Shown here one piece after another: positions 1,145-57,687 of a stretch of 64,000 bases of DNA. The stretch's first letter is position 1. Each line of letters starts with the position of its first letter. This DNA is from Alphaproteobacteria bacterium (GTDB lineage: Bacteria > Pseudomonadota > Alphaproteobacteria > RF32 > CAG-239), in NCBI GenBank assembly GCA_017480745.1, contig JAFUSA010000008.1:86090-150089 (forward strand), read 5' to 3'. The notes under the pieces were generated by a model. It did no database searches. It was not told where the DNA came from and saw only the letters and a program-made list of their open reading frames with translations. Position numbers and translations under genes: made by a program.

Positions 1145-3211
1145 ATGATAGCTCAATTTTTAATGGGGAATGATATGCCGCAAACGCAACGTAAAAAAAC
1201 AAGCAAATCAGTAGATAAATCAGAAAATAAAAAAACAAGACGGCGCACTCCCGTCAAAAATAAAGTCGCTAAAAAGAAAACAAGCACTGGAAATAAAATT
1301 TCGTGGAAGCGGAGGTTATTTAAATGGTGTTTATATACTTGTTTGACACTGTTTATTGCTCTTTGCGGCTATATTTTTTATTGCTATGTAACCTTGCCTG
1401 ATATTCAAAAAGCAATAACTCGTTCGCGAGAACCTTCAACTGTTGTGTTGGCGGAAAACGGTAACGAAGTTGCCAAGTTCGGAAATGTTTACGCCGAAGT
1501 TATTTATCCGGATAAACTGCCGAAAAATTTAACCGACGCAGTTATTGCCACCGAGGATAGACATTTTTATAGCCATTTCGGGTTTGATATTTTTGGTTTT
1601 GCGCGCGCAATGATTACTAATATTTTTAGAAAACGCTATTCGCAAGGTGCATCTACCATAACTCAACAGGTAGCAAAAAATGTGTTTTTAACTCCGAGTA
1701 AAAACATAAAACGCAAAGTGCAGGAACTCTTACTCTCTTTTTGGTTAGAATACAAATTGAGCAAAAATCAAATTATGGCTCTGTATCTGAATCGCGTTTA
1801 TTTCGGCTCTGGATCATACGGTGCACAGGCGGCGGCAAATTGGTATTTTAACAAAAGTGTTTATGATTTGAATTTGCGCGAAGCAGCCATTTTAGCCGGA
1901 ATGCTGAAAGCGCCGAGTCGCTACAATCCGATTTTTAAGCGTAGCGCCTCACTCAAAAGAGCCGATATTGTTTTGGATAATATGCGTAAAAACGGTTATA
2001 TCAGCGAAAAACAATATAAACAAGCCCTCTCCTTACCTATCAGCGACGGGCGTAAATATCGTGTTAGTGGCGGCAAGCATTTTGCACAATATGTTTATGA
2101 TGAGGTTAACTCCTTTGTTGGCGAACGCTCTGACGATATTGTTATTATTACTACGCTTGATCAAAAGTTACAGGAAACTGCCGAAAAAATTTTGCGAGCA
2201 AAAATATTTAATGCCAAGGAGCAAAAAGTCAGCGAAGGAGCAGTTGTAATCATGGATAAAAACGGAGCTATCAAAGCTATGGTTGGTGGTGTTGATTATA
2301 ACCGCAGTCAATTCAACCGCGCAGTGCAAGCCAAGCGTCAAGCTGGTTCATCATTTAAGCCTTTTGTTTATTTAACGGCTTTGCAATACGGATTTACACC
2401 GGAAAGCAAAATAAATGATGCACCTATTACTATCGGTAAATGGAAACCGGAAAACTACACCAAAAAATATTATGGCGAAGTAAGCCTGAATTATGCTCTA
2501 ACTCACTCGTTGAATGTGGCTACGGTTAATCTTTCACAAGAGTTATACATTAAAGATATTGCCGCCAATGCACATAAAATGGGAATTTCAACCGATATTT
2601 CATTGGCTCCGGCAATGGTTTTGGGCACCAGCGGCGTAAAAGTTTTGGATATGGCAACTGCTTACGCTACTATTGCCAACGGCGGGATAAAAGTATTTCC
2701 GCATGCCATTAACGAAGTTGCCACTAAGGATGGAAGACAGATTTATGTGCGTCAGGAAAATCCCAAAGAGCGTATTTTGGACCAAAGTGTTGTGCGTGGC
2801 ATAACTTCAATGTTAGAAAAAGTTATCACTCAGGGCACCGGACAACGAGCCAAGTTGCCGTTTTTTGCCGCCGGAAAAACCGGTACAACTCAAAATTATC
2901 GAGATGCGTGGTTTATAGGTTGGACCAATAAATATGTGGCAGCCGTTTGGGTTGGTAATGATAATGAAAAACCGATGAATAAAGTAGGTGGCGGTAATTT
3001 GCCGGCAGAAATTTGGCATGATATTATGCTGAGCACGGTAAAAGATATTGACGTTGAAGATGTGGATTTCAGCAACTTCGATATGGAGAAAGAAGAAAAC
3101 GACGATATCGGTGATTTAATAGAAAAGGAAGCCACAGATATTGGTGCATCAGCCGCATCTCCGGCAAAATCTGCTCCGCAATCTATGGAAGAATTGTTAG
3201 AAGAACTGTGA
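1145..3211 (+). CDS. mrcA: Class A penicillin-binding protein (transglycosylase/transpeptidase, PBP1A family)
   Basis: Motifs ATEDRHFYSHFGFD, QGASTITQQ, SSFKPF and KTGTT, with an N-terminal TM helix. Alternative starts at 1163 and 1175. Confidence 0.85.
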   Translation: MIAQFLMGNDMPQTQRKKTSKSVDKSENKKTRRRTPVKNKVAKKKTSTGNKISWKRRLFKWCLYTCLTLFIALCGYIFYCYVTLPDIQKAITRSREPSTVVLAENGNEVAKFGNVYAEVIYPDKLPKNLTDAVIATEDRHFYSHFGFDIFGFARAMITNIFRKRYSQGASTITQQVAKNVFLTPSKNIKRKVQELLLSFWLEYKLSKNQIMALYLNRVYFGSGSYGAQAAANWYFNKSVYDLNLREAAILAGMLKAPSRYNPIFKRSASLKRADIVLDNMRKNGYISEKQYKQALSLPISDGRKYRVSGGKHFAQYVYDEVNSFVGERSDDIVIITTLDQKLQETAEKILRAKIFNAKEQKVSEGAVVIMDKNGAIKAMVGGVDYNRSQFNRAVQAKRQAGSSFKPFVYLTALQYGFTPESKINDAPITIGKWKPENYTKKYYGEVSLNYALTHSLNVATVNLSQELYIKDIAANAHKMGISTDISLAPAMVLGTSGVKVLDMATAYATIANGGIKVFPHAINEVATKDGRQIYVRQENPKERILDQSVVRGITSMLEKVITQGTGQRAKLPFFAAGKTGTTQNYRDAWFIGWTNKYVAAVWVGNDNEKPMNKVGGGNLPAEIWHDIMLSTVKDIDVEDVDFSNFDMEKEENDDIGDLIEKEATDIGASAASPAKSAPQSMEELLEEL

Positions 3212-3275
3212 AAAAGTTTTTGTCTTTCATTTCAGAGCATTATCTATTTTTCTCAGATATTCTGATAGAAACCGT

Positions 3276-3487
3276 TTGACTTTGAATTTTTTTGTGATAT
3301 AGTGAGCATAAGATGAGGTAACTTGTCTGAGGTATCCTAACCTCTCTAACAGCGTCTTTTAGGGCGTAAATTTTTCCGGCCACGGTCGGAAGGTCGCAAA
3401 ATGAAGCAGTGTGCGAATATGCGACACTATTCTGTTAGATAGTTAGGAACTTCCGGCCGTCTTGTCTGAGGCGGTTGTTTTTTTAAC
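3276..3487 (+). promoter_or_regulatory. Class A structured leader (promoter + ~190-nt RNA + terminator hairpin) upstream of a non-pilin ORF
   Basis: TTGACT 3276-3281, 16-nt spacer, TGaTATAGT ending at 3303. Conserved blocks gatgaggtaacttgtctgaggt..acctc, ttccggcc/ggtcggaagg, gtcgca..tgcgac, actat..atagt, then acttccggccgtc..gaggcgg + T-run 3478-3485. Confidence 0.75.
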
Positions 3488-3515
3488 AACAAAAGAGCAA
3501 AAAAGGAAAATAACG

Positions 3516-3791
3516 ATGACTTTTGATGTTGAACACACTTATGACGGAACAGTTAAAGTTCGTCGTCATTATGATTTTTACACAACAGTGGAAATTAAGG
3601 AACGAGATTATCAATTTGTTTTATGCTGGCATTTTTTGGATGAAAAACAAAAAGAACAAGTTTTGCAATATATTCGCCAAATAAGCGATAACAAATTTCC
3701 GTTTCGCGATACATCTCAATACCCGCCATTTAAGCCGAAAAAATACCTTAAAACTCTGTTGAGTATGGCTGATTTATTCCATTGGATGTGA
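3516..3791 (+). CDS. Hypothetical small protein (91 aa)
   Basis: ATG at 3516 is preceded by aaaagga. The track's upstream extension (3462) overlaps the leader terminator, so I trimmed it. No recognisable domain. Confidence 0.55.
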   Translation: MTFDVEHTYDGTVKVRRHYDFYTTVEIKERDYQFVLCWHFLDEKQKEQVLQYIRQISDNKFPFRDTSQYPPFKPKKYLKTLLSMADLFHWM

Positions 3792-3813
3792 AAATTTACT
3801 GTCGGCAATTATG

Positions 3814-4257
3814 TTAAAAACACATACTGACATGATTAGCCGACGGTTGACATTCGCCATTTTTTATCTCATTTACCTTAATCTCAGCCATACCCCACTC
3901 CGGACTTTTGGCAATTTCACATTGAGCTTTATTCAACCCCTTAATGTCCAAACAATAAGAATTAATACTGACCGGTAAAACATCCCATTCTAAGCCTTTC
4001 AGACCGCGAAAATAAAGCAATGATTTTTTGGCTTCACCATAGTTGCCGATGAACATCACTTGAATTTCTGAGTGCACTTGCGCCAAATCCTGCTTAAACT
4101 TAACCAAATTCATAGCATTATTCATCTTGTTTATACCTTCCATGGCTGCCGCATCGGTCGTGCCATCTACCGCCAATGTGCCCAATAAATCACCCATTTG
4201 TGCATTTGCGCTGAAAGCATACAAACAACAAACAAAACTCCACAGTAACTTTTTCAT
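3814..4257 (-). CDS. Secreted hypothetical protein (Sec signal peptide, Cys-containing)
   Basis: N-terminus MKKLLWSFVCCLYAFSANA|Q. Abuts the stop of the upstream ROK gene. Confidence 0.6.
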   Translation of the reverse strand: MKKLLWSFVCCLYAFSANAQMGDLLGTLAVDGTTDAAAMEGINKMNNAMNLVKFKQDLAQVHSEIQVMFIGNYGEAKKSLLYFRGLKGLEWDVLPVSINSYCLDIKGLNKAQCEIAKSPEWGMAEIKVNEIKNGECQPSANHVSMCF

Positions 4258-7577: not shown

Positions 7578-8108
7578 TTACTCAGGCATTGACAAGCCGA
7601 ACGGATCTTGTTTAGGCTTATCATTTGCCTTTTCTTCCGAGGCAATCGGTTCAACCTCAGAAGTATTTTGCGCTTTTTCTACCGCATTTTGAATTTCATC
7701 AAAACTAAACAGAGGGCTTCCAAAGCGATCAAACACGGTATCTTCATTTAAAACCTGCTGCCATTGCAATTTATGAGCTTCTTCTGACAAAGGCTCAACC
7801 GCATGTTGCAGACTTAAAGCATACACATCATCCCAAGTATAAATTTTTCCCGAATCCAAATTAACATGCGATATTTGATGTGTGTTGGCATCAATATACG
7901 CAAAATGTCCTTTCTCATCTGTGTAATTTTTGCACGGAATATCTATCGGATCCGGATATTCTACTTTTGGAGCGGTATTACTTTTTGTGATTTCAACTGT
8001 TTCAGTTGCAACACCCTGCGCAGAAGATACTTGCGTTTTTCTATCAGTAGAGGTAGCCGAATCTGACTTAATTCCCCTCAAAGCATTAAGCTGTTCAAGC
8101 GTTAGCAT
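7578..8108 (-). CDS. Hypothetical protein (176 aa)
   Basis: Start overlaps the stop of the upstream ORF (TAATG), suggesting translational coupling. No domain recognised. Confidence 0.55.
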   Translation of the reverse strand: MLTLEQLNALRGIKSDSATSTDRKTQVSSAQGVATETVEITKSNTAPKVEYPDPIDIPCKNYTDEKGHFAYIDANTHQISHVNLDSGKIYTWDDVYALSLQHAVEPLSEEAHKLQWQQVLNEDTVFDRFGSPLFSFDEIQNAVEKAQNTSEVEPIASEEKANDKPKQDPFGLSMPE

Positions 8109-8938
8109 TATCTTCCCCCGTAGTCAATCCACTTATCAGATAACATCTTACTTGTGGCAGCGCCATCTAATTTTTGGCCACGACTGATACTGGCTTGTGT
8201 ATCAGCACCATATTGTAATTGTTCTTGCAATATATGGCTAGCCTGATATCTGTCTATTGACTTGAGATGTCCGTCTTTAGTTTTTTCGTAGTGGCGTACA
8301 TTTTTATATACACCATCAGAACCTTTATCATTCGGATCGTAAGTGGTGATAATGTCACCGCGCTGAACAGCGGCTGTGCGCAACTCCTGACCTTCACGAT
8401 CCGCCTTGCGGGCACAACAGAATTTCATATTATCATATTCACGGCGCTTTTCATAATCAATGATTATACCGCCATTAGACATAGGCACACCCATTCCGTC
8501 CGCAAAATGTAATTGATCGCGTAAAGCATAAATGATTTCCGGATCCTTAGTAATTATCATTTCTTTGCCGTGGTATACCTTTGCCGCATAAACACCATTA
8601 TTGGAACCTACCATGCCGACAGCCGTTTTACCGCCGATATCTTGACCGGCCATTTCATCATCATATACTTGAAAATCATTGCGCGCAAAAGCTCCCTTCT
8701 CCTTTTCGTACGGGTGAACATGCTGTCCCCCAAAGGAGGCATAAGGATTTTCAACCAGATTATAATGTCCATCCGTCTGCCCATCACTAACCTTAATGTT
8801 CTCATAATCTTTGACAACCATGAATGTATTTTCAGCAAAGCCCATTTCCTTCAATTTGGTGCTTAATGGTTTCACTTCGTAACTTTCAGGATTATGCACC
8901 ATTTCCTTCCAAGTAGTATCTCTTGACTGCCATGACAT
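8108..8938 (-). CDS. Hypothetical protein (276 aa)
   Basis: Start trimmed to ATG 8938 (MSWQSRDTTWKE) behind a strong RBS, aaggag. The track extension to 9052 runs through the leader hairpin. Confidence 0.6.
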   Translation of the reverse strand: MSWQSRDTTWKEMVHNPESYEVKPLSTKLKEMGFAENTFMVVKDYENIKVSDGQTDGHYNLVENPYASFGGQHVHPYEKEKGAFARNDFQVYDDEMAGQDIGGKTAVGMVGSNNGVYAAKVYHGKEMIITKDPEIIYALRDQLHFADGMGVPMSNGGIIIDYEKRREYDNMKFCCARKADREGQELRTAAVQRGDIITTYDPNDKGSDGVYKNVRHYEKTKDGHLKSIDRYQASHILQEQLQYGADTQASISRGQKLDGAATSKMLSDKWIDYGGR

Positions 8939-8959
8939 CTCTTTTCTCCTTAATTTGTT

Positions 8960-9128
8960 AAAACGACAAAGCCGCCCGAACCGGCGGCAGAGGAGTGCAA
9001 AATCATATTTGTACAAAGGAACAACGGTTTCAGCATTGCATACAAACAACACCGGTACAAATAGGAGCTTTGCAGGCCCCGAACCAAAGTTCTATATTCA
9101 TTATACCCTAAAAAAAAATAAAAGTCAA
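8960..9128 (-). promoter_or_regulatory. Short class-B-like leader (promoter + 5' hairpins + terminator hairpin) upstream of a non-pilin operon
   Basis: On the minus strand: TTGACT (9128-9123), 17-nt spacer, TATAAT (9105-9100). Then agaactttggttcggggcctgcaaagctcc as in class B, ending ctgccgccggttcgggcggctttgtcgtttt. Confidence 0.65.
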
Positions 9129-15516: not shown

Positions 15517-15552
15517 AGTAAACTTCCTTTCGTATGAATTGTTGATATTACA

Positions 15553-15763
15553 TTAAAACAATACCGCCCCAACGAGGCGGCCGGAAGCTGCAAACTATTT
15601 TACACGAAATAGCGCCGCATATTAATACAAGATTCTATTCTGCGACCTTCCGGCCACTGCCGGAAATTTTTACGTCCATACGACGCGTGTAAAAGAGGCT
15701 TGCAGGCCCCAGACAAGTTATCTCATCTTATGTTTACTATACCATAAAAAAATCCAAAGTCAA
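15553..15763 (-). promoter_or_regulatory. Class A structured leader of pilin paralog 1
   Basis: Minus strand: TTGACT (15763-15758), 16-nt spacer, TGgTATAGT (-10 at 15741-15736). All class A blocks present. Terminator gccgcctcgttggggcggtattgtttt. Confidence 0.75.
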
Positions 15764-16940: not shown

Positions 16941-17027
16941 GCGCTTGTGGCGGAATCGGTAGACGCTGCAGACTTAAAATCTGTTGGGATTTATCCCGTG
17001 CCAGTTCAAGTCTGGCCTAGCGCACCA
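16941..17027 (+). tRNA. tRNA-Leu (anticodon UAA), CCA encoded
   Basis: 87 nt. Acceptor gcgcttg/ctagcgc, anticodon loop cuUAAaa, long variable arm, T arm gccag-ttcaagt-ctggc. Confidence 0.9.
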
Positions 17028-17133: not shown

Positions 17134-17220
17134 TGGTGCCCTGAAGAAGACTCGAACTTCCACTGCCTGAGGCAACATGCACCTGAAGCATGCGCGTCTA
17201 CCAATTCCGCCATCAGGGCA
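17134..17220 (-). tRNA. tRNA-Leu (anticodon CAG), CCA encoded
   Basis: Reverse complement tgccctgatggcggaattggtagacgcg-catgc-ttCAGgt-gcatg..., long variable arm, ends in ...gggcacca. Confidence 0.9.
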
Positions 17221-17369: not shown

Positions 17370-17993
17370 TTACTTAACTTCTCCGCTGAGGGAGCTATCT
17401 GCGAAAAACATGATGACGGTATCATATCTATTAGTGCACATATTTACCGCTCCCTCCACACTAACCGGAACTTTTAAATCGTGCAAAGCTCCATCATCAT
17501 CACTGATAGTGATTATATTTATATTTGCTACTGTCCAGTCATAAGTTAATAGTTCAATACAAACTTCATCAGGAATATCATAATAGGCTATACTGAATGC
17601 TTTATTATCTTCCTCTTCTGCTAAACTAACCCCACCACCGAAAGGATTGGTAATAGAGGTGATTTTACCAGCCGCATTAATGGTAATCATTTCATCAGGG
17701 AATATTTTGGCTTTTTTAACTATCGGACAGCCATCACCGGAAGATTGCCCATAGCAACCGGCACTATTGCAATAACAACGCACCCCGATATAATTCTTCT
17801 GTGGTCCCCAAAAGGCATGCACATTTCCGGCAATGAGGGTTATTTGCTCAATGGTTTTATTGATTCTGTGTTTCATCATTGCTTTGCTATATCCGGCAAT
17901 TCCACCAACAGATAATACGCCGATTATGGCGAGCACTCCTAACATTTCTATCATTGAACGACCATTTTGATATTTAATTTCAAAGTTTCTCAT
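17370..17993 (-). CDS. Prepilin-like protein, paralog 2
   Basis: MRNFEIKYQNG|RSMIEMLGVLAIIGVLSVGGIAGYSKAMMKHRINKTIEQITLIAGNVHAFW...VCIELLTYDW. Confidence 0.8.
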   Translation of the reverse strand: MRNFEIKYQNGRSMIEMLGVLAIIGVLSVGGIAGYSKAMMKHRINKTIEQITLIAGNVHAFWGPQKNYIGVRCYCNSAGCYGQSSGDGCPIVKKAKIFPDEMITINAAGKITSITNPFGGGVSLAEEEDNKAFSIAYYDIPDEVCIELLTYDWTVANINIITISDDDGALHDLKVPVSVEGAVNMCTNRYDTVIMFFADSSLSGEVK

Positions 17994-18028
17994 AATCTTA
18001 TCTCCTAAATCATAGAGGTTAATACATT

Positions 18029-18260
18029 AAAAAAACTAACCGCCAAACGGCGGTCGGGAGAGGTAGAAAATCATATTAGTTGAAATGATTTCTGTGATCT
18101 TTAGACAATAGCCCTGTACATCCACCACAGACTCCCCAACCCACGTCGGAGATATTTCACATTCAATAACGATGTCAAAAACACCGCAACTAATAAGAGC
18201 TTTCTACAGCTCCGAACCGAAGTTCTAAGTTTATATTATCACAAAAAATCTAAAAGTCAA
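18029..18260 (-). promoter_or_regulatory. Class B structured leader of pilin paralog 2
   Basis: Minus strand: TTGACT (18260-18255), 16-nt spacer, TGaTAATAT. gaac-ttcg-gttc hairpin, atatctccgacgtgggttggggag, ctgtg..cacag, ctctcccgaccgccgtttggcggt + T-run. Confidence 0.75.
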
Positions 18261-24921: not shown

Positions 24922-25671
24922 CTAATAAAATTTCAGAAGTAAAGCATTTTGATCGGCTTTTCCGTCAGCCGTTCCACAAACAGCGGCAGCATTGGCAGCA
25001 GTCATCGGACCTTTACCTCCGCAAGCAACACCCTCACCAACCGTACATGTTGTCACGGCAGTTTTAGCAAAATCGGTAACCGTTCCAGATGTTGCAGCTT
25101 TAGGTGTACAACCATTTTTCGGATTACCTTGAGCGTCTTTACAATCGTCTCCAGCATCTGCACCTGCCAATTCACCAGCAATTATTTTAGCCTGAATTAA
25201 ACCTGAACCGGAAGCTGAGCCCCAATCCTGAGTTGCCAAATCCATACATGCTTCTTCCGGAATATTATCAAAAACCAATACAAAAGATTTAGCATCACCG
25301 CAACCGGTGCAAGTACCGGTTTCTGTGGTGCTGCTGCGTGCACCCGCTTGCAGATAAATGTTTCCACCAAATGGATTGCCATTAGCTATTATTCCATCAC
25401 TTGTAATCAACTCATCCGGAAATAACTTTGCTTTGGCAATCAAACTTCCGTTTGTTGCGGCACCCAAAGCCTTGTAATTCTTTTGGCTACCGAACAGGGT
25501 GCGCACGTTGGTTACAATCATTGAAATTTGTTCAATAGTTTTATTAGTGCGATATTTCATCATCGCTTTGGAATAACCGGCAATACCACCAACGCTCAAC
25601 ACGCCGATAATTGCCAATACGCCGAGCATTTCAATCATGGAACGACCGGATTCGATATTGTGTGTTTTCAT
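24922..25671 (-). CDS. Prepilin-like protein, paralog 3 (divergent Cys/Gly/Ala-rich C-terminal half)
   Basis: Start trimmed to ATG 25671 behind gaaggag: MKTHNIESG|RSMIEMLGVLAIIGVLSVGGIAGYSKAMMKYRTNKTIEQISMIVTNVRTLF...EACMDLATQDW. Confidence 0.8.
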   Translation of the reverse strand: MKTHNIESGRSMIEMLGVLAIIGVLSVGGIAGYSKAMMKYRTNKTIEQISMIVTNVRTLFGSQKNYKALGAATNGSLIAKAKLFPDELITSDGIIANGNPFGGNIYLQAGARSSTTETGTCTGCGDAKSFVLVFDNIPEEACMDLATQDWGSASGSGLIQAKIIAGELAGADAGDDCKDAQGNPKNGCTPKAATSGTVTDFAKTAVTTCTVGEGVACGGKGPMTAANAAAVCGTADGKADQNALLLKFY

Positions 25672-25714
25672 TTTTAAATCTCCTTCTCGAAAAAAAATAT
25701 ATGTTATTAATACT

Positions 25715-25940
25715 AATTTTGACCGCCACTGGCGGTCGGAGAGTTTACAAATCATACCACATCAATGATCCTGCTAATCTTTAGGTAAACTACCCTGAAC
25801 ATCCACTAACAGCTCCCCGACCAAATCGGAGATATATCATCTGTCAACGACGTTTTTTCCACGTCGAATGCGGTATGAGCTTGTAAAGGCTCTGAACCGA
25901 AGTTCTGAATTTATGATAACATAAAAAATGAAAAAGTCAA
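25715..25940 (-). promoter_or_regulatory. Class B structured leader of pilin paralog 3
   Basis: Minus strand: TTGACT (25940-25935), 16-nt spacer, TGtTATCAT. gaac-ttcg-gttc, cgacgt..acgtcg, tctccgatttggtcggggag, ctgttag..ttagcag, ctctccgaccgccagtggcggtc. The U-tract after the last hairpin is poor in this copy. Confidence 0.7.
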
Positions 25941-27772: not shown

Positions 27773-27810
27773 AGTATACTTCCTTTCATTTTTGTTGTTG
27801 ATATTACACT

Positions 27811-28017
27811 AAAACAACCGCCCGATAAGGCGGCCGGAAGTTCGAAACTACTTCTACATAAATAGTGTCATGTATTAAAAAAACTATCTATTCCATGACC
27901 TTCCAGCCAATGCCGGAAATATTAACGCCATTTACAGCGATGTAGAAAGAGGTTTCGACACCTCAGACAAGTTACCTCATCTTGTTTTTATGATAGCATA
28001 AAAAAACTAAAAGTCAA
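27811..28017 (-). promoter_or_regulatory. Class A structured leader of pilin paralog 4
   Basis: Minus strand: TTGACT (28017-28012), 16-nt spacer, TGcTATCAT. All class A blocks present. The gtcatg/catgac stem carries a double compensatory change. Confidence 0.75.
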
Positions 28018-30559: not shown

Positions 30560-30764
30560 TTGACATAAGGGATTTTTTGGTTTAATATGATCCTCATGAT
30601 GAGGTAAAAATCATCTGGGGTCTCTAAGCCTCTTTAAACCCGTCTTTGTAGACGTAATTTTTCCAGCTTGGCTGGAAGGTCGTGGAATAGTTAATGAATG
30701 AATACGCGACACTGTTTGGTTTAAATAGTTTAGAGCTTCCAGCCACCTCTCGGAGGTGGTTTTA
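30560..30764 (+). promoter_or_regulatory. Class A structured leader of pilin paralog 5
   Basis: TTGACA 30560-30565, 17-nt spacer, TAATAT 30583-30588. The three repeated segments all carry ccagc/gctgg instead of ccggc/gccgg. Terminator ccacctc-tcg-gaggtgg + tttt. Confidence 0.75.
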
Positions 30765-30797
30765 ATGTAATTTTAATTAAGTGAAAGGAAGTTTACT

Positions 30798-35236: not shown

Positions 35237-35980
35237 TTATCTGAAATAAAAGTGTAATTCAGCGTCATCAGAACAAGTGCTTGCGGCTTTATCAACGCTT
35301 ATCGGTAATGTTTTGTTGTAAATACAGCCAACATTATCATCATCCCAATAATCTCCCGTTACACAATCAAACATTACAGCACTGTCATCTTCATTTATTG
35401 CCAGAGCTATTAAATCGCTGACAGACCAATCATGTGTGGATAGTTCAATACAGGCTTCTTGCGGTAAACCATAAAGGGTTATCTTATAGCCCGTCACTGT
35501 TTTACTTCCGTTGCTGCCCCAATAATCGTAAATATAAACCGCACCACCAAAAGCATTGGTTATATTCGTGATATTACCGTCGGAATCTAATGTCAGCATT
35601 TCATCGGGTACAAGTTTGGCTTTTTTGATAATTGCTTTTCCTGTATCAGAATACGAAGATAATCCGTCATAATTTCCTTGCGGGCCGAAGAATGCCCGAA
35701 CATTACCGGCGATTAAAGTTATTTGCTCAATAGTTTTATTGATGCGATACTTTTGCATTGCCTTTGAATATCCGGCGATTCCGCCAACAGATAACACGCC
35801 GATGATGGCAAGAACACCAAGCATTTCTATCATTGAGCGACCATTCTGTCCGCCCTCAACATTTTGCACTTCTTTTGAGTTAAACAAAGCATTGCAATAA
35901 ATATTCTGCGGAGCGAACGAATGTTCGCGACCTGATGCGTTAGCATCACAAATAGTTTGTTTGAAATTACAATTTCCCAT
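35237..35980 (-). CDS. Prepilin-like protein, paralog 6 (46-aa presequence)
   Basis: MGNCNFKQTICDANASGREHSFAPQNIYCNALFNSKEVQNVEGGQNG|RSMIEMLGVLAIIGVLSVGGIAGYSKAMQKYRINKTIEQITLIAGNVRAFF...EACIELSTHDW. Confidence 0.78.
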   Translation of the reverse strand: MGNCNFKQTICDANASGREHSFAPQNIYCNALFNSKEVQNVEGGQNGRSMIEMLGVLAIIGVLSVGGIAGYSKAMQKYRINKTIEQITLIAGNVRAFFGPQGNYDGLSSYSDTGKAIIKKAKLVPDEMLTLDSDGNITNITNAFGGAVYIYDYWGSNGSKTVTGYKITLYGLPQEACIELSTHDWSVSDLIALAINEDDSAVMFDCVTGDYWDDDNVGCIYNKTLPISVDKAASTCSDDAELHFYFR

Positions 35981-36015
35981 AGTAAACTTTCTTTCATTTT
36001 TGTTGATATTACACT

Positions 36016-36222
36016 AAAACAACCGCCCGATAAGGCGGCCGGAAGTTCGTAACTACTGCAATTAATAGTGTCGCATATTCAACCCATAGTCTTATTCTGC
36101 GACCTTCCGGCCACAAAGCCGGAAATTTTTACGTCTTTAAGACGAATTGCAAGAGGTTACGACACCTCAGACAAGTTACCTCATCTTGATTTTATGATAG
36201 CATAACAAAAACTGAAAGTCAA
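36016..36222 (-). promoter_or_regulatory. Class A structured leader of pilin paralog 6
   Basis: Minus strand: TTGACT (36222-36217), 17-nt spacer, TATCAT (36199-36194). Canonical class A blocks. Terminator ggccgccttatcgggcggttgtttt. Confidence 0.75.
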
Positions 36223-36301
36223 ACAAAAAATTTAAATCAGCCATTTTTTATTAGTCACGGATTATTTTTTGAGCAGATTTTGATTTCTCAGAAAAAATAA
36301 T

Positions 36302-36531
36302 TTGACATTTTAAAATTTTGTGATATAGTAATCACAGAACTACGGTTCGGGGCTTTCATCGGCTCTCATTACGCTTGGTGTGTAAAAAACACTATCATAA
36401 GGTATGTAATATCTCCGATTGGGTCGGGGAGACTGCAATGGATGTTCAGAGCTTTTGCTTAAAGATTGTAGTGATTATTAGCGTAATGTAATTGATGAAC
36501 TCCCCTGCCGCCGTTTGGCGGTTAAATTTTT
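36302..36531 (+). promoter_or_regulatory. Class B structured leader of pilin paralog 7
   Basis: TTGACA 36302-36307, 16-nt spacer, TGaTATAGT (-10 at 36324-36329). gaac-tacg-gttc, atatctccgattgggtcggggag, ctgcaa..ttgtag, actcccctgccgccgtttggcggt + T-run. Confidence 0.75.
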
Positions 36532-36565
36532 AATGTGTTAACCTTTAATTTTAGGAGATAAAATT

Positions 36566-37213
36566 ATGATAAACTATAATAATGAAAACGGTCGTTCGAT
36601 GATAGAGATGCTGGGCGTATTAGCTATCATTGGTGTTTTAAGTGTTGGTGGTATCGCTGGATATACCAAGGCGATGATGAAATACAGAATCAATAAAACC
36701 ATCGAGCAAATTACTCTTATTGCCGGCAATGTGAGAACGTTTTTCGCAAATCAAAAAACAATTTCATTAAGATTTAATAAAGATGGTCCACAGGATGAAG
36801 CAAGTGAAAAAATTGTCAGAAAGGCAAGGTTAGTGCCGGAAGAAATGATGTATTTGAATGGTGATGGCGAAATAGTGTATCTTGTAAGTACGTTTGGTGA
36901 ACGTTTTTTTGTAATAGGAAGTCCATCAAGCAAGTTCTTTTCCTTATATTTTTATAATCTTCCACAGGAGGCTTGTATTGAATTGTTATCGCATGATTGG
37001 AATAACGCTAATGCTTCTGCAATTAGTGTTAATGGCGGTGAATATCTTACTTTTTTTCTTCCAGTAAACGTGGATGATGCCGTGAAAGCCTGTGATTACA
37101 TCAACCGTAGCCTCGATAGTAATGGTGATTATAATGTATCGATATTATTTGACTACACCGGAGATATGACGGATGCTGTAAATGAAACAAAAGAAATATT
37201 GAGCAAATTATAA
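36566..37213 (+). CDS. Prepilin-like protein, paralog 7
   Basis: MINYNNENG|RSMIEMLGVLAIIGVLSVGGIAGYTKAMMKYRINKTIEQITLIAGNVRTFF...EACIELLSHDW. Confidence 0.8.
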   Translation: MINYNNENGRSMIEMLGVLAIIGVLSVGGIAGYTKAMMKYRINKTIEQITLIAGNVRTFFANQKTISLRFNKDGPQDEASEKIVRKARLVPEEMMYLNGDGEIVYLVSTFGERFFVIGSPSSKFFSLYFYNLPQEACIELLSHDWNNANASAISVNGGEYLTFFLPVNVDDAVKACDYINRSLDSNGDYNVSILFDYTGDMTDAVNETKEILSKL

Positions 37214-42050: not shown

Positions 42051-42257
42051 TTGACTTTTGAGCTTTTTATGATATAGTAAAAGCAAGATGAGGTAACTTG
42101 TCTGAGGTGTCAGAACCTCTTGCAATTCGTCTTAAAGACGTAAAAATTTCCGGCTTTGTGGCCGGAAGGTCGTGGAATAAAACTATAGGTTGAATATGCG
42201 GCACTATTAATTGCAGTAGTTCTGAACTTCCGGCCGCCCTTATCGGGTGGTTGTTTT
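42051..42257 (+). promoter_or_regulatory. Class A structured leader of pilin paralog 8 (reference copy)
   Basis: TTGACT 42051-42056, 16-nt spacer, TGaTATAGT (-10 at 42073-42078). Segment 1 ttccggc 42148-42154, segment 2 gccggaagg 42161-42169, segment 3 cttccggcc 42227-42235. Terminator cggccgccc/gggtggttg + tttt to 42257. Confidence 0.78.
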
Positions 42258-42292
42258 AGTGTAATATCAACAAAAATGAAAGGAAGTTTACT

Positions 42293-48360: not shown

Positions 48361-48546
48361 GCGCTCGCCGACGTGTTGAAAGCTACCTAATAGAATAGTG
48401 TCGCATATTATACAATTTATTCTGCGACCTTCCGACCATTGTCGGAAACATTTTACGTCCTGTCTGACGCTATTAGAGAGGCTTTCAAACCTCAGACAAG
48501 TTACCTCATCTTACTTAGATACTATCACAAAAAATGTAAAAGTCAA
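48361..48546 (-). ncRNA. Orphan class A leader-like RNA with promoter but no downstream gene
   Basis: Minus strand: TTGACT (48546-48541), 16-nt spacer, TGaTAGTAT. Then gatgaggtaacttgtctgaggtttgaaagcctc, cgtc..gacg, tttccgacaatggtcggaagg, gtcgca..tgcgac, cactatt. The 3' part diverges and runs into the convergent tetR stop. Confidence 0.6.
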
Positions 48547-48618
48547 ACTTTTTTTCGTAGTCAAACACAAAATTATGGCGCGCTATAATTTGTGCTTATA
48601 CACCAAATCATAAAAGTC

Positions 48619-50859: not shown

Positions 50860-51651
50860 TTAATACCACGTTACTCCCAGATCAGCGGCTTCCTTCTTAT
50901 AAAAACTTTCATCTGCATCAAAAAATAAAGATACACTTGTACTAATTACATCATCTTCAGGATCGACGTACGCATATGAACATATGTTGACAGCATTATC
51001 AATAGATATTGGTAAAGAAAAACTTGCTTTATCTATAGTTTGCAAGTTATTTACCGAAATAAAACTGACATTTGCGTTAGTCCAGTCATGTGTTAAAAGT
51101 TCTATACAAGCTTCTACGTTATTTCCTATGTCATACGTAACATCAAATGCTTGATCTTCACTATTAAATGATTTATAATTTGCATTTAATACAACTTTTC
51201 CACCAAAAACATTTTCCAAAGCCGTTTTGTCACTATTCCACATTTCATCAGGGACTAATTTAGCTTTGTGTATTATTTTTCTGCCATTAGTTTCATTGCT
51301 ATTCAATCCTTTATAATTCCTCTGCGGAGCAAAAAATGTTCGCACATTGCCGGCAATTAAAGTTATTTGCTCAATAGTTTTGTTGATGCGATATTTGGTC
51401 ATTGCTTTGCTGTATCCGGCGATTCCGCCAACCGAAAGAACGCCAATAATTGCCAACACGCCAAGCATTTCAATCATTGAACGTCCGCTCTGCGTGGCAA
51501 AACCACACTTATAGTCATGCCTCGATTCCGCAGGAATCGTCAAGTCATCTTCTGCTTGATTAAAATTAATTTGAAGATCCCTTGACGCATTCGCCTTTGC
51601 AAGGCTCTGCGAGGGATGACTTTTTATATTTTTTATTTTTAAGTTATTCAT
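50860..51651 (-). CDS. Prepilin-like protein, paralog 9 (56-aa presequence)
   Basis: MNNLKIKNIKSHPSQSLAKANASRDLQINFNQAEDDLTIPAESRHDYKCGFATQSG|RSMIEMLGVLAIIGVLSVGGIAGYSKAMTKYRINKTIEQITLIAGNVRTFF...EACIELLTHDW. Confidence 0.78.
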   Translation of the reverse strand: MNNLKIKNIKSHPSQSLAKANASRDLQINFNQAEDDLTIPAESRHDYKCGFATQSGRSMIEMLGVLAIIGVLSVGGIAGYSKAMTKYRINKTIEQITLIAGNVRTFFAPQRNYKGLNSNETNGRKIIHKAKLVPDEMWNSDKTALENVFGGKVVLNANYKSFNSEDQAFDVTYDIGNNVEACIELLTHDWTNANVSFISVNNLQTIDKASFSLPISIDNAVNICSYAYVDPEDDVISTSVSLFFDADESFYKKEAADLGVTWY

Positions 51652-51689
51652 AGTAAACTTCCTTTCATCTGAATTGTTGATATTACATT

Positions 51690-51895
51690 AAAACAACCGC
51701 CCGATAAAGGCGGCCGGAAGTTGACGACTATTTAAGATTAGATAGTGTGGCTTATTTGGTTCACCCTTATTCAACCACCTTCCAGCCATACTGGAAAATT
51801 TTTACGTCTTCAAAGACGACTTCAAAGAGGTTTTCAGACCTCAGACAAGTTACCTTATCTTGTTTTCACTATATCATAAAAAACGCAAAAGTCAA
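51690..51895 (-). promoter_or_regulatory. Class A structured leader of pilin paralog 9
   Basis: Minus strand: TTGACT (51895-51890), 16-nt spacer, TGaTATAGT. The gtggtt/aagccac stem is compensatory relative to gtcgca/tgcgac. Terminator ggccgcctttatcgggcggttgtttt. Confidence 0.75.
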
Positions 51896-56550: not shown

Positions 56551-57420
56551 CTACTTAAAACCCAATATAATCTCGCAAGTATCTTCTGTGCACGAACATG
56601 CGGCAACAGCTTTTTCCAGTGGAAGCGGCAAAGTATTTCCCGCTGGACAAAAATACCTATCATCTTCCGCGGTACAATCATTATCCGCGACATTAGCCAT
56701 ATCTCCGTCCAACGTTTCATTGATATACATACCTACAACATTTGCGGCTTGCCAATCATGACTGGCTATCTCAATACAGGCTTCTGCCGGTAAATATGCT
56801 ATGCTTATGCCAAAAGCTGTAAAACCATTAGTTACATTCTCCGATAATACAACCCCACCACCGAAGGGATTGGTAATAGCGGTAATTTTTTTACCGGTAG
56901 AATCAAGAGTAATCATTTCATCCGGTAATATCTTGGCTTTTTTTATTATCGGACAGCCATTGACAGTAGAAGTAGGATAGCCGCTGCTGCTAACACCGCC
57001 ATCACTTCCCTTACATCCGTTGGTTGCATTGCAGGTATAACCACTACAATTAACCCCGATATAGTTCTTCTGTGGTCCCCAGAAAGCACGCACATTGCCG
57101 GCAATTAATGTTATTTGCTCAATAGTTTTATTGATGCGATACTTTTGCATTGCCTTACTATATCCGGCTATTCCGCCAACGCTTAATACGCCGATTATAG
57201 CCAGTACGCCTAACATCTCGATCATTGAACGACCAGACTGCGGCGCATCTGCACCACTCTCCGCAAGAGGTGAACATCCACTCTGTTCACTTTTTGCATC
57301 AAGCACTTCTTTTGCAGTTAAAAACGTATTGCAACAAATATTCCATGGAGCGGATGAAAATCCGCGACCCGGCGCACCAGCGCCGTTAATGTTTTGTTTA
57401 GAATTTATATTTCTCATCAT
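56551..57420 (-). CDS. Prepilin-like protein, paralog 10 (63-aa presequence)
   Basis: MMRNINSKQNINGAGAPGRGFSSAPWNICCNTFLTAKEVLDAKSEQSGCSPLAESGADAPQSG|RSMIEMLGVLAIIGVLSVGGIAGYSKAMQKYRINKTIEQITLIAGNVRAFW...EACIEIASHDW. Confidence 0.78.
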   Translation of the reverse strand: MMRNINSKQNINGAGAPGRGFSSAPWNICCNTFLTAKEVLDAKSEQSGCSPLAESGADAPQSGRSMIEMLGVLAIIGVLSVGGIAGYSKAMQKYRINKTIEQITLIAGNVRAFWGPQKNYIGVNCSGYTCNATNGCKGSDGGVSSSGYPTSTVNGCPIIKKAKILPDEMITLDSTGKKITAITNPFGGGVVLSENVTNGFTAFGISIAYLPAEACIEIASHDWQAANVVGMYINETLDGDMANVADNDCTAEDDRYFCPAGNTLPLPLEKAVAACSCTEDTCEIILGFK

Positions 57421-57449
57421 TTTATCTCCTCTATTTGATAGGTTTAATT

Positions 57450-57687
57450 AAAAATCAAAGGCCACCAAACGGTGGCAGGGGAGTTTACAAATCATAGAGT
57501 TTAAAATGATCCGCGCAATTTTTAGGCACAAACCCTGAACATTTACCACGCGCTCCCCGACCAAGTCGGAGATATTCATCATATCTTTAACGATGTTAAA
57601 AAAATTAACACCGTAAACTCTAAGAGCTTGTAAAGGCCCTGAACCGAAGTTCTGTTTCTATAATATCATAGAATTTTAAAAAGTCAA
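57450..57687 (-). promoter_or_regulatory. Class B structured leader of pilin paralog 10
   Basis: Minus strand: TTGACT (57687-57682), 16-nt spacer, TGaTATTAT. gaac-ttcg-gttc, tgttaa..ttaaca, atatctccgacttggtcggggag, gcgcg..tgcgc, actcccctgccaccgtttggtggc + T-run. Confidence 0.75.

Follow-up and report, generated by a model that had tools for sequence, protein, structure and literature searches.

How can a pilin gene be expressed when a terminator-like hairpin stands between it and its sole visible promoter? This question is raised by a 64,000-nucleotide (nt) stretch of DNA, hereafter the window, from an alphaproteobacterium (assembly GCA_017480745.1, contig JAFUSA010000008.1, positions 86,090 to 150,089 of the forward strand), in which a type IVb-like pilin gene starting at 36566 is preceded by a structured leader. 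An earlier note on this DNA had described this leader, called class B, as the second of two leader classes serving one pilin family, had drawn it as a series of hairpins with a middle arm able to pair with either of two partners, and had called for a covariance model, a comparison with class A, and an Rfam scan. We propose that the class B leader, an RNA of ~190 nt, forms the 5′ untranslated region (UTR) of the pilin mRNA and that it is probably a transcription attenuator whose two folds exclude each other. Since its sequence permits either a terminator or an antiterminator fold, the leader most likely decides the transcription of the pilin gene.

The Leader, Its Copies, and Its Relatives

The signature of the class B leader, i.e., its 5′ hairpin joined to the motif of hairpin P3 (Table 1), is found at exactly four sites of the window, 18132-18225(-), 25813-25905(-), 36337-36431(+), and 57553-57652(-), with 0.00 sites expected by chance from 100 shuffles. 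A covariance model built on six class B copies scores the full window copies at 190-207 bits (E ~1e-50 to 1e-55), and the pattern scan and the model together confirm the positions previously given for four full copies and a shortened variant. Each full copy ends 27-38 nt ahead of the start codon of a pilin gene, and the encoded proteins, which have PF08805/PF05307 matches and an invariant GRSMIEMLGVLAIIGVLSVGGIAGY N-terminus, bear out the idea that the leader serves members of this family. The pilin at 36566 itself gives a PF08805 PilS match and a weak Bundlin match. On its 5′ side, every copy is preceded by a promoter of the form TTGAC(A/T)-16/17-TGnTAnnnT, which ends 6 nt upstream of AGAAC; the strong promoter postulated earlier is thus there, near-consensus and with an identical layout in all copies. 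In the copy at 36302, a GC-rich hairpin followed by a U-tract, as in an intrinsic-terminator attenuator, lies between this promoter and the open reading frame (ORF). Of the class B1 copies, 4/7 have a good U-rich tail after the hairpin, as do nearly all copies of classes A and C.

The class B model was then searched against 83 sources (1.39 megabases in total) and against further loci, here numbered with an L. It finds class B leaders in other metagenomes (L005, L006, and L096/L097, at ~190 bits), as well as two divergent copies with large insertions, named B2, in L071 (106 bits) and L041 (90 bits). It also recovers class A leaders, with E-values of 1e-13 to 1e-6, and a third class, C, both of which align end to end with the class B model, with identical helices in identical order. 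The three classes have a common architecture and, because the class B model finds class A with a shared helix order, A and B are subtypes of one family; the comparison called for earlier detects homology, and class B is not an independent invention, as the term second leader class had implied. The order common to the superfamily is P0, P1a/b/c, P2, P3, P4, segment b, the P1 3′ strand, and the terminator, with an additional pairing between two segments called X and Y, immediately upstream of a GRSMIEML-type pilin. Model matches end 21-38 nt ahead of a same-strand pilin start codon in 31 of 38 cases. The six class A leaders of the window (class B model E-values of 1e-11 to 0.03), each located upstream of a pilin gene, have X = GGCYGGAAG and Y = CUUCCRGCC. 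A class-agnostic scan for a terminator plus complementarity, over the pilin genes of the fetched loci, suggests the attenuator layout at ~30/136 pilin genes, 55 of these genes having no upstream terminator.

A Closing Helix Supported by Covariation

RNAalifold, applied to four, six, and seven copies, returns a structure, hereafter fold T, in which a closing helix, P1, surrounds the hairpins P2, P3, and P4 and is followed by the terminator-like hairpin. P1 is a long-range helix of ~21 base pairs (bp) made of P1a (GRGG/CYCC), P1b (8 bp), an internal loop AAGCUCUUA/UAUGAUUU, and P1c (9 bp). In class B, P3 has the consensus UCUCCGAY-loop-GUCGGGGA, while P4 consists of a covarying outer stem, a conserved loop GGAUGUUCA...AAAGAU, and an inner hairpin. 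The minimum free energy (MFE) of a single sequence is -70.9 kcal/mol (z = -4.35). The earlier drawing was right in its parts: the elements that it listed are there, including GAAC-UNCG-GUUC at the 5′ end (P0), the hairpin with an A/U-rich loop (P2), whose covariation is borne out, and the covarying stem enclosing GGAUGUUCAG..CYUAAAGAU, which corresponds to P4; the conserved stretch AUAUCUCCGA..GGUYGGGGAG and the second CUC(U)CC motif with its GC hairpin are likewise present. It remained, however, a string of local hairpins in which the dominant closing helix had been overlooked. The GRGC/GCYC hairpin illustrates this point: the predictions contain it only while the RNA is still being transcribed or within the alternative fold described below, its nucleotides belong to P1 in the ground state, and it displays no compensatory change within class B. 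We rejected CCUAAAG as a tetraloop receptor, since class B has no GNRA loop and the strand opposite reads UCAGG, not UAUGG.

Covariation was measured on a plain MAFFT alignment of the seven distinct class B sequences, with 500 shuffles and slid-partner controls. Under fold T, 96.3% of the cells are paired, and 28/62 pairs are compensatory, against 13.1 +/- 2.1 in the shuffles (0/500 as high) and 3-10 in the slid controls; of the 23 pairs of P1, 15 are compensatory in class B. A closing helix P1 is shown alike by RNAalifold, by the covariance model, and by these pair counts. When the 35 leaders of all classes are aligned, 93.8% of the cells are paired (slid controls, 36-49%) and 57/61 pairs are compensatory; this alignment is fitted to the model and so biased towards structure, but the margin is nonetheless very large. 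P0, which is invariant within class B, has 4/4 compensatory pairs across classes (helix 1), and the terminator hairpin (helix 9) has 6/6; within class B, the outer stem of P4 has 6/8. The covariation is weak for P1a in a duplex test, where own partners give -1.5 kcal/mol versus -1.2 kcal/mol for the others (132/2000 permutations as low). Altogether, the covariation for the fold with the closing helix P1 is strong and, because G-U pairs are invariant, the transcribed strand is the pilin-sense strand.

A Second, Mutually Exclusive Set of Pairings

In nearly every full-length leader, and in every class, X (GGUYGGGGAG in class B) is complementary over 9-10 bp to Y, a segment made of the P1a 3′ strand and of the first 3-4 nt of the 5′ arm of the terminator. 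The X:Y helix overlaps this arm, so that it and the terminator stem exclude each other. In fold T, X pairs instead with the 5′ arm of P3, which mimics the Y segment. The middle arm GGUYGGGGAG does have two alternative partners, one of them overlapping the terminator, as had been claimed, and in the copy at 25708-25906 the perfect complementarity that had been pointed out is found again, the antiterminator helix having 10/10 bp. On the contrary, the weaker overlap ascribed to the copies at 36302 and 57450 was a mistake, since GGUCGGGGAG/CUCCCCUGCC pairs at 9/10 positions, beyond CUCCCC/GGGGAG.

These pairings are specific to each leader. X pairs with its own Y at -17.6 kcal/mol, versus -12.2 kcal/mol with the Y of other leaders (0/2000 permutations), and the arms of P3 pair with their own partner at -9.7 kcal/mol, versus -6.4 kcal/mol with those of other leaders (0/2000 permutations); in every class, X:Y exceeds P3 in strength. 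The two segments change in step in L041 (GGUCUGGGAG/CUCUCAGACC), in L005 (AGGCGGGGAG/CUCCCUGCC), and within class A (GGCCGGAAG/CUUCCGGCC versus GGCUGGAAG/CUUCCAGCC); in class C, the pair reads GGACGGAUG/CAUCCGCCC. A further helix joins segment b to b′, which sits on the 3′ side of the P1 internal loop. Its sequence is AUCAU/AUGAU in class B, CUAU/AUAG in class A, and CCGU/ACGG in class C, and the copy at 36302 carries a C-G to U-A change. Finally, the P1a 5′ strand can pair locally with GCUC of the internal loop, which gives the GRGC/GCYC hairpin mentioned above. When X:Y alone is enforced in ViennaRNA, the b:b′ hairpin appears unprompted and, in most sequences, so does the local 5′ hairpin.

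Because b:b′ is incompatible with P1c (zero linking nucleotides), the two folds are global alternatives, and we call the second one fold AT. A pseudoknot retaining P1b and P1c alongside X:Y was rejected by reasoning on its geometry, the linkers being of 0-2 nt, or of 7-8 nt spanning ~55 Å; it is the nested alternative fold that the energy model returns. Pairings of J2/3 with b and of the P1 internal loop with b′ have a weak own-partner advantage or none. To judge from the sequences, the proposed switch logic holds, and it is stronger than the earlier note stated.

Table 1. Features of the class B leader at 36302, and leaders of the window. Positions are those of the window.
Feature	Position	Strand	Details
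Class B leader with promoter	36302-36532	+	Precedes type IVb-like pilin (ATG 36566, 215 amino acids)
Promoter TTGACA-16 nt with TG-TATAGT	36302-36329	+	11/12 consensus matches; ends 6 nt ahead of leader
P0 hairpin GAAC-UACG-GUUC	36337-36348	+	At predicted transcript start
P1 5′ strand: P1a GGGG, P1b UUCAUCGG, internal loop CUCU, P1c CAUUACGCU	36349-36375	+	
Local hairpin GGGGCU/GGCUCU	36349-36375	+	Alternative use of first 18 nt of P1 5′ strand
P2 hairpin UGGUGU-(A-rich loop)-ACACUA	36376-36394	+	Helix 4; 5/6 pairs compensatory
P3 hairpin UCUCCGAU-UGG-GUCGGGGA	36412-36430	+	Proposed anti-antiterminator; RNAalifold, duplex test
X, GGUCGGGGAG	36422-36431	+	Putative antiterminator 5′ strand (P3 3′ arm + 1 nt); 9/10 bp with Y
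P4: outer stem ACUGCAAU/AUUGUAGU, conserved internal loop GGAUGUUCA...AAAG, inner hairpin GAGC-UUUU-GCUU	36432-36472	+	
Mini-ORF inside P4	36438-36461	+	Equivalents in all class B copies
b segment GAUUAUU (J4/1)	36473-36479	+	Complement of b′ GUAAUU (36488-36493)
P1 3′ strand: P1c AGCGUAAUG, b′ and loop, P1b UUGAUGAA, CU, P1a CCCC	36480-36505	+	
Y, CUCCCCUGCC	36500-36509	+	Putative antiterminator 3′ strand; P1a 3′ strand + first 3 nt of terminator stem
Terminator-like hairpin GCCGCC-GUUU-GGCGGU (36507-36522), then UAAAUUUUUA	36507-36532	+	
Ribosome-binding site AGGAGA	36553-36558	+	
Type IVb-like pilin gene region (ribosome-binding site and ORF)	36553-37213	+	ATG 36566, 215 amino acids
Class B leader	18025-18226 (18025-18260 with promoter)	-	205.7 bits; pilin 17370-17993(-) downstream
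Class B leader	25708-25906 (25708-25940 with promoter)	-	190.3 bits; pilin 24922-25671(-) downstream
Class B leader	57447-57653 (57447-57687 with promoter)	-	207.5 bits; pilin 56551-57420(-) downstream
Short variant	8957-9093 (8957-9128 with promoter)	-	67.6 bits; non-pilin gene 8108-8938(-) downstream
Class A leader	15550-15723	-	
Class A leader	27804-27977	-	
Class A leader	30607-30771	+	
Class A leader	36009-36181	-	
Class A leader	42091-42264	+	
Class A leader	51682-51855	-	

Proposed Termination and Readthrough

In fold T, P0 and the ~21-bp P1 closing P2, P3, and P4 would be followed by the GC-rich hairpin with its U-tract, ~35 nt ahead of the ribosome-binding site, and transcription would terminate. 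In fold AT, X would leave the P3 5′ arm and pair through its 9-10 bp with Y, so that the terminator would be blocked and the polymerase could read through; P1 would be open, with its 5′ end in the local GRGC/GCUC hairpin, and b would pair with b′, the P1c 3′ strand being looped out. P3 would thereby play the role of anti-antiterminator, X:Y that of antiterminator, and the GC hairpin that of terminator, while Y would be locked a second time by P1a. As the transcript is lengthened in MFE predictions, the local 5′ hairpin persists through most of synthesis, up to ~150-165 nt, before P1c, P1b, and P1a displace it successively. P1 is a part of all unconstrained predictions. Since the terminator fold is predicted to be the more stable one, termination is likely to be the default; from these energies we infer that fold T would be the ground state, and that readthrough would need a trans-acting factor or a kinetic trapping that favors fold AT.

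Several observations weigh against this attenuator model. At full length, fold AT is predicted to lie 9-19 kcal/mol higher in energy than fold T, the gap is still 4-22 kcal/mol just before the terminator 3′ arm is made, and the X:Y fold is not the MFE structure at any transcript length; with fold T so far ahead, thermodynamics alone cannot explain switching. Three orthologous copies (25708-25906, L006, and L096) have no U-tract after the hairpin, which is GACCGCC/GGCGGUC in the first of them; for that copy the absence of a good U-tract had been correctly noticed, and its orthologues in L006 and L096 are alike in this. The short variant has P1 and a terminator: it keeps the promoter, P0, P1a/b/c, and the internal loop, lacks P3 and P4, and is without an antiterminator because X is missing. 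Moreover, within class B the alternative helices can be paired (92.8% of the cells) yet are nearly invariant, with only 2 compensatory events (107/500 shuffles as high), and the covariation of X:Y and b:b′ comes mainly from the comparison of the three classes and from the two divergent B2 copies, i.e., from few independent events.

Some of these points are what one would expect if the leader did not switch at all and were a constitutive structured 5′ UTR stabilizing a very abundant mRNA, or a stable small RNA in its own right that stops at the hairpin, and if the X:Y complementarity were a by-product of the repeated CUCC and GGAG motifs. The position of P0 at the predicted +1, the prediction of fold T as the ground state everywhere, the short variant with P0, P1, and terminator and no X, and the three copies without a U-tract would all suit such an element. 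We nevertheless find it quite improbable: the 9-10 bp of X:Y reach beyond CUCC to include part of the terminator stem, the two segments vary together from leader to leader, a strong terminator between the sole visible promoter and the gene is sensible only if it is conditional, and the orthologous pilin genes of L092, L094, and L095 do without the leader, which points to an optional regulatory module.

Candidate Triggers of the Proposed Switch

If the leader is an attenuator, what would tip it toward fold AT? It could be a riboswitch for a metabolite or a second messenger such as cyclic di-GMP (c-di-GMP), the P1-closed four-way junction being the aptamer and X:Y with the terminator the expression platform. 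The large multi-helix junction, with its conserved unpaired J2/3 (AAUAU), P4 loop (GGAUGUUCA/AAAGAU), and P1 internal loop (AAGCUCUUA/UAUGAUUU), and the location in a 5′ UTR with both a terminator and an antiterminator would fit such a device. There is also a precedent, as a c-di-GMP-II riboswitch is mentioned to control the type IV pilus operon of Clostridioides difficile (PMC11477304, citing Bordeleau et al. 2015). Like the class B leader, the C. difficile element is mentioned as a 5′ UTR RNA ahead of a type IV pilin gene (PMC11477304), but it belongs to a different phylum, serves an operon with one leader where here there is one leader per pilin gene, and has no similarity of sequence or structure to class B. 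In Rfam 15 at gathering threshold, the whole window gives two tRNAs only, and in E-value mode (36250-36600 and the whole window, E up to 10) no class B copy matches any model, c-di-GMP models included, so that the scan called for earlier leaves the leader outside every Rfam family. Moreover, the ~21-bp P1 forms ligand-free in every prediction, whereas the P1 helices by which riboswitches gate expression are usually short, the core loops conserved in class B differ among A, B, and C, and the alternative pairing already explains most of the conserved nucleotides. Hence, we regard a riboswitch as unlikely.

Among the possible triggers, a class-specific trans-acting RNA-binding protein seems somewhat more likely to us than a small molecule or metabolite, because P1 is far too long for ligand gating, because loop and arm sequences differ by class while the architecture is kept, and because the dual pairing already accounts for most of the conserved nucleotides.

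The ribosome itself could be the trigger, by leader-peptide attenuation. X (GGGGAG) would then be the Shine-Dalgarno (SD) sequence of a 6-codon mini-ORF, MFRAxA, starting at the invariant AUG of the P4 loop, and its translation would occupy X, open P4, and set the terminator decision. The AUG lies exactly 10 nt past GGGGAG in 7/7 class B1 copies, 6/7 copies stop at a conserved UAA after 6 codons (the peptides being MFRAFA, MYRAIV, MFRVCA, MFRVLA, MFRAIA, and MFRAEA), and the divergent L071 and L041 copies are also open from the AUG to the equivalent UAA. The reading frame is, however, shifted by a 1-nt insertion in the 25708-25906 copy, and its variation, with AUGU-N-CA giving Phe, Ser, or Tyr and an AGG to AGA change being compensated in the hairpin, fits constraints on the RNA, not on a peptide. 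The SD and the AUG are, moreover, paired or enclosed in both folds, and an equivalent ORF is missing from class A, whose architecture is the same. A leader peptide therefore appears most improbable as the basis of the switch.

The control might also be exerted mainly on translation, segments that resemble CUCC, namely Y, the P3 5′ arm, and the P1 internal loop, acting as anti-SD sequences against the ribosome-binding site of the pilin gene, with X as a decoy. In each class, this site resembles X (AGGAGA/GGGGAG in B, AAGGAAG/GGAAGG in A, and AAGGAUG/GGAUG in C), and UAUCUCC, at the boundary of J2/3 and P3, complements GGAGAUA at the class B ribosome-binding site, for instance at 36553-36559. 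But there are only three classes, each inherited with its own ribosome-binding site, so that the likeness may be a coincidence; the best anti-SD partner is Y in class A and the P3 5′ arm in class B, and the ribosome-binding site is not sequestered in any predicted fold. We hold this explanation to be very unlikely. As an observation apart, the class A ribosome-binding site GGAAGUU is complementary to AACUUCC in Y.

Coming back to attenuation, a wider scheme can be imagined, although it is a speculative one that we would not expect to be true: with constitutive strong promoters and default termination, the leaders would supply the RNA part of a selector system, in which those of class A, B, or C would be flipped into fold AT by class-specific factors, be they proteins, a new ligand, or RNAs that other loci release. 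The cell could by this means pick which subset of its scattered pilin genes to express. In these abundant and uncultured gut bacteria, this would amount to a new mechanism of surface variation or to a novel class of orphan riboswitch. The host clade, made of uncultured gut and rumen Alphaproteobacteria, has an extraordinary number of type IVb-like pilin genes, and a large covarying RNA with two folds ahead of each gene offers a concrete and testable handle on their control.

Relation to Known RNAs

In the trp-type attenuators and the PyrR-controlled pyr leaders of Bacillus, segments 1:2, 2:3, and 3:4 follow a logic of terminator, antiterminator, and anti-antiterminator. The pilin leader would work in the same manner, P3 (1:2) hiding the antiterminator strand and X:Y (2:3) overlapping the terminator (3:4) and, as in classical attenuators, its antiterminator is intrinsically stronger than its anti-antiterminator. 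Unlike them, it has ~75 nt (P4, b, and the P1 3′ strand) between segments 2 and 3, a 21-bp closing helix forming a second lock on segment 3, and at least three sequence classes with many copies per genome; unlike the trp-type and pyr leaders, it has no convincing leader peptide and no known binding protein.

No description of the leader was found in the papers searchable here. On its sequence and predicted pairings, we rate it as a new family of cis-regulatory RNA of a known kind, the putative transcription attenuators. What sets it apart is a double lock, a closing helix of 21 bp, a division into three or more sequence classes, and its presence at one copy per gene in a paralogous pilin family of very large size. 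It adds a well-supported family to the cis-regulatory RNAs lacking a known trigger and, since a single architecture here carries two decoy pairings and comes in three sequence classes, provides a natural example of attenuator diversification.

Two other RNAs deserve mention. HMP2_12443, the closest trace found in the papers searchable here, is listed by Fremin and Bhatt 2021 (PMC8040213), in a catalogue of the human microbiome, as an uncharacterized 56-nt candidate structured RNA of 29 sequences, with no taxon and with the neighbor domains N_methyl, IV_pilin_GFxxxE, HflK/HflC, and Band_7. Its pilin and Band_7 neighbors recall the locus at 36566, a likeness drawn from its description; it differs by its length of only 56 nt, and the entry describes neither structure, switch, nor function (PMC8040213). 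The second one is sRNA-Xcc1 (RF02221), which gives sub-threshold matches to the 3′ halves of two class A leaders, at 42160-42243(+) and 36029-36112(-) (33-34 bits, E 0.035-0.08, under the gathering score of 53) and none to class B; we treated these matches as chance or as a generic similarity of hairpin plus terminator.

Apparent Exchange or Loss of Leaders

The relatives of the leader were reached via the pilin proteins. This family has more than 7,800 homologues in the protein database, the named ones, few in number, being ‘MAG: Alphaproteobacteria bacterium’ records (MAG, metagenome-assembled genome), and at least 549 stretches encoding relatives were found among the representative genomes searched; the best 80 of these come nearly all from alphaproteobacterial MAGs of rumen, livestock gut, and human gut. 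When the species-representative genomes were scanned for the DNA pattern of the class B signature, no match came up, and the five matches of a pattern scan of the JGI metagenome collection, which are GC-rich, were discarded as chance hits unrelated to the leader. Class B1 is thus rare or absent in these two collections.

We had expected class B leaders on the orthologues of the pilin 24922-25671, and this was true of some of them. The orthologues in L006, L096, and L097 have a class B leader, the one in L098 has a class C leader (3750-4020), and those in L092 (9824-10000), L094, and L095 give no model match and display only a plain promoter and a short UTR. Hence, the leader class is not predicted by the pilin phylogeny, and the leader is a module rather than a constant component of the gene; such modules appear, from this comparison, to have been exchanged or lost. 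The family is not strictly confined to pilins either, as leaders also stand ahead of non-pilin genes. The gene downstream of the short variant, 8108-8938(-), encodes ~275 amino acids with no Pfam domain and no pilin N-terminus. Other leaders precede a repeat-rich 224-amino-acid non-pilin protein (L041 12180-12854) and a 75-amino-acid ORF (L030 7111-7338). In L090, a B2-like leader with a degenerate 3′ end, 2450-2593(-), has no gene within ~150 nt downstream and is probably a decayed copy.

Genomic Setting

The window has matches in ENA metagenome assemblies, in contigs of ~70 kb. It holds ten pilin genes, each with a class A or a class B leader, which are dispersed one by one amid housekeeping genes (recA, ftsK, nrdD, ffh, rplS, and trmD). 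A Band_7 gene lies near the pilin at 36566. In the same region, the class A copy 36009-36181(-) and the class B copy starting at 36336(+) are transcribed divergently from one intergenic region. Elsewhere in the window, two convergent tRNA genes, 16941-17024(+) and 17137-17219(-), lie just downstream of the pilin 17370-17993. Further class A-like repeats, which the class B model did not score, occur at 3269-3459(+), ahead of a small non-pilin ORF with no Pfam match (3462-3791), and at ~48418-48556(-), where the repeat adjoins a TetR-family gene.

The pilins themselves differ in their prepeptides. Very long and variable prepeptides, of 40-60 amino acids ahead of the GRSMIEML cleavage region, are encoded by 56551-57420(-), 35237-35980(-), 50860-51651(-), and L005 6719-7567(-), and several of these pilins have a GRGFSSAPWN-like or ANASRDLQINFNQ-like motif in common; in other pilins, the prepeptide has only ~10 residues. 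Finally, a recurrent element is located ~112-116 nt ahead of the pilin cleavage-site codon in the MAG loci L075, L039, L035, L065, L031, L033, and L080. It consists of a terminator-like hairpin preceded by AUAAGCCUUGCG (AUAAACCUUGCG in L080), in which a crude scan found no strong complement of the X:Y type, and it may represent a further leader class.

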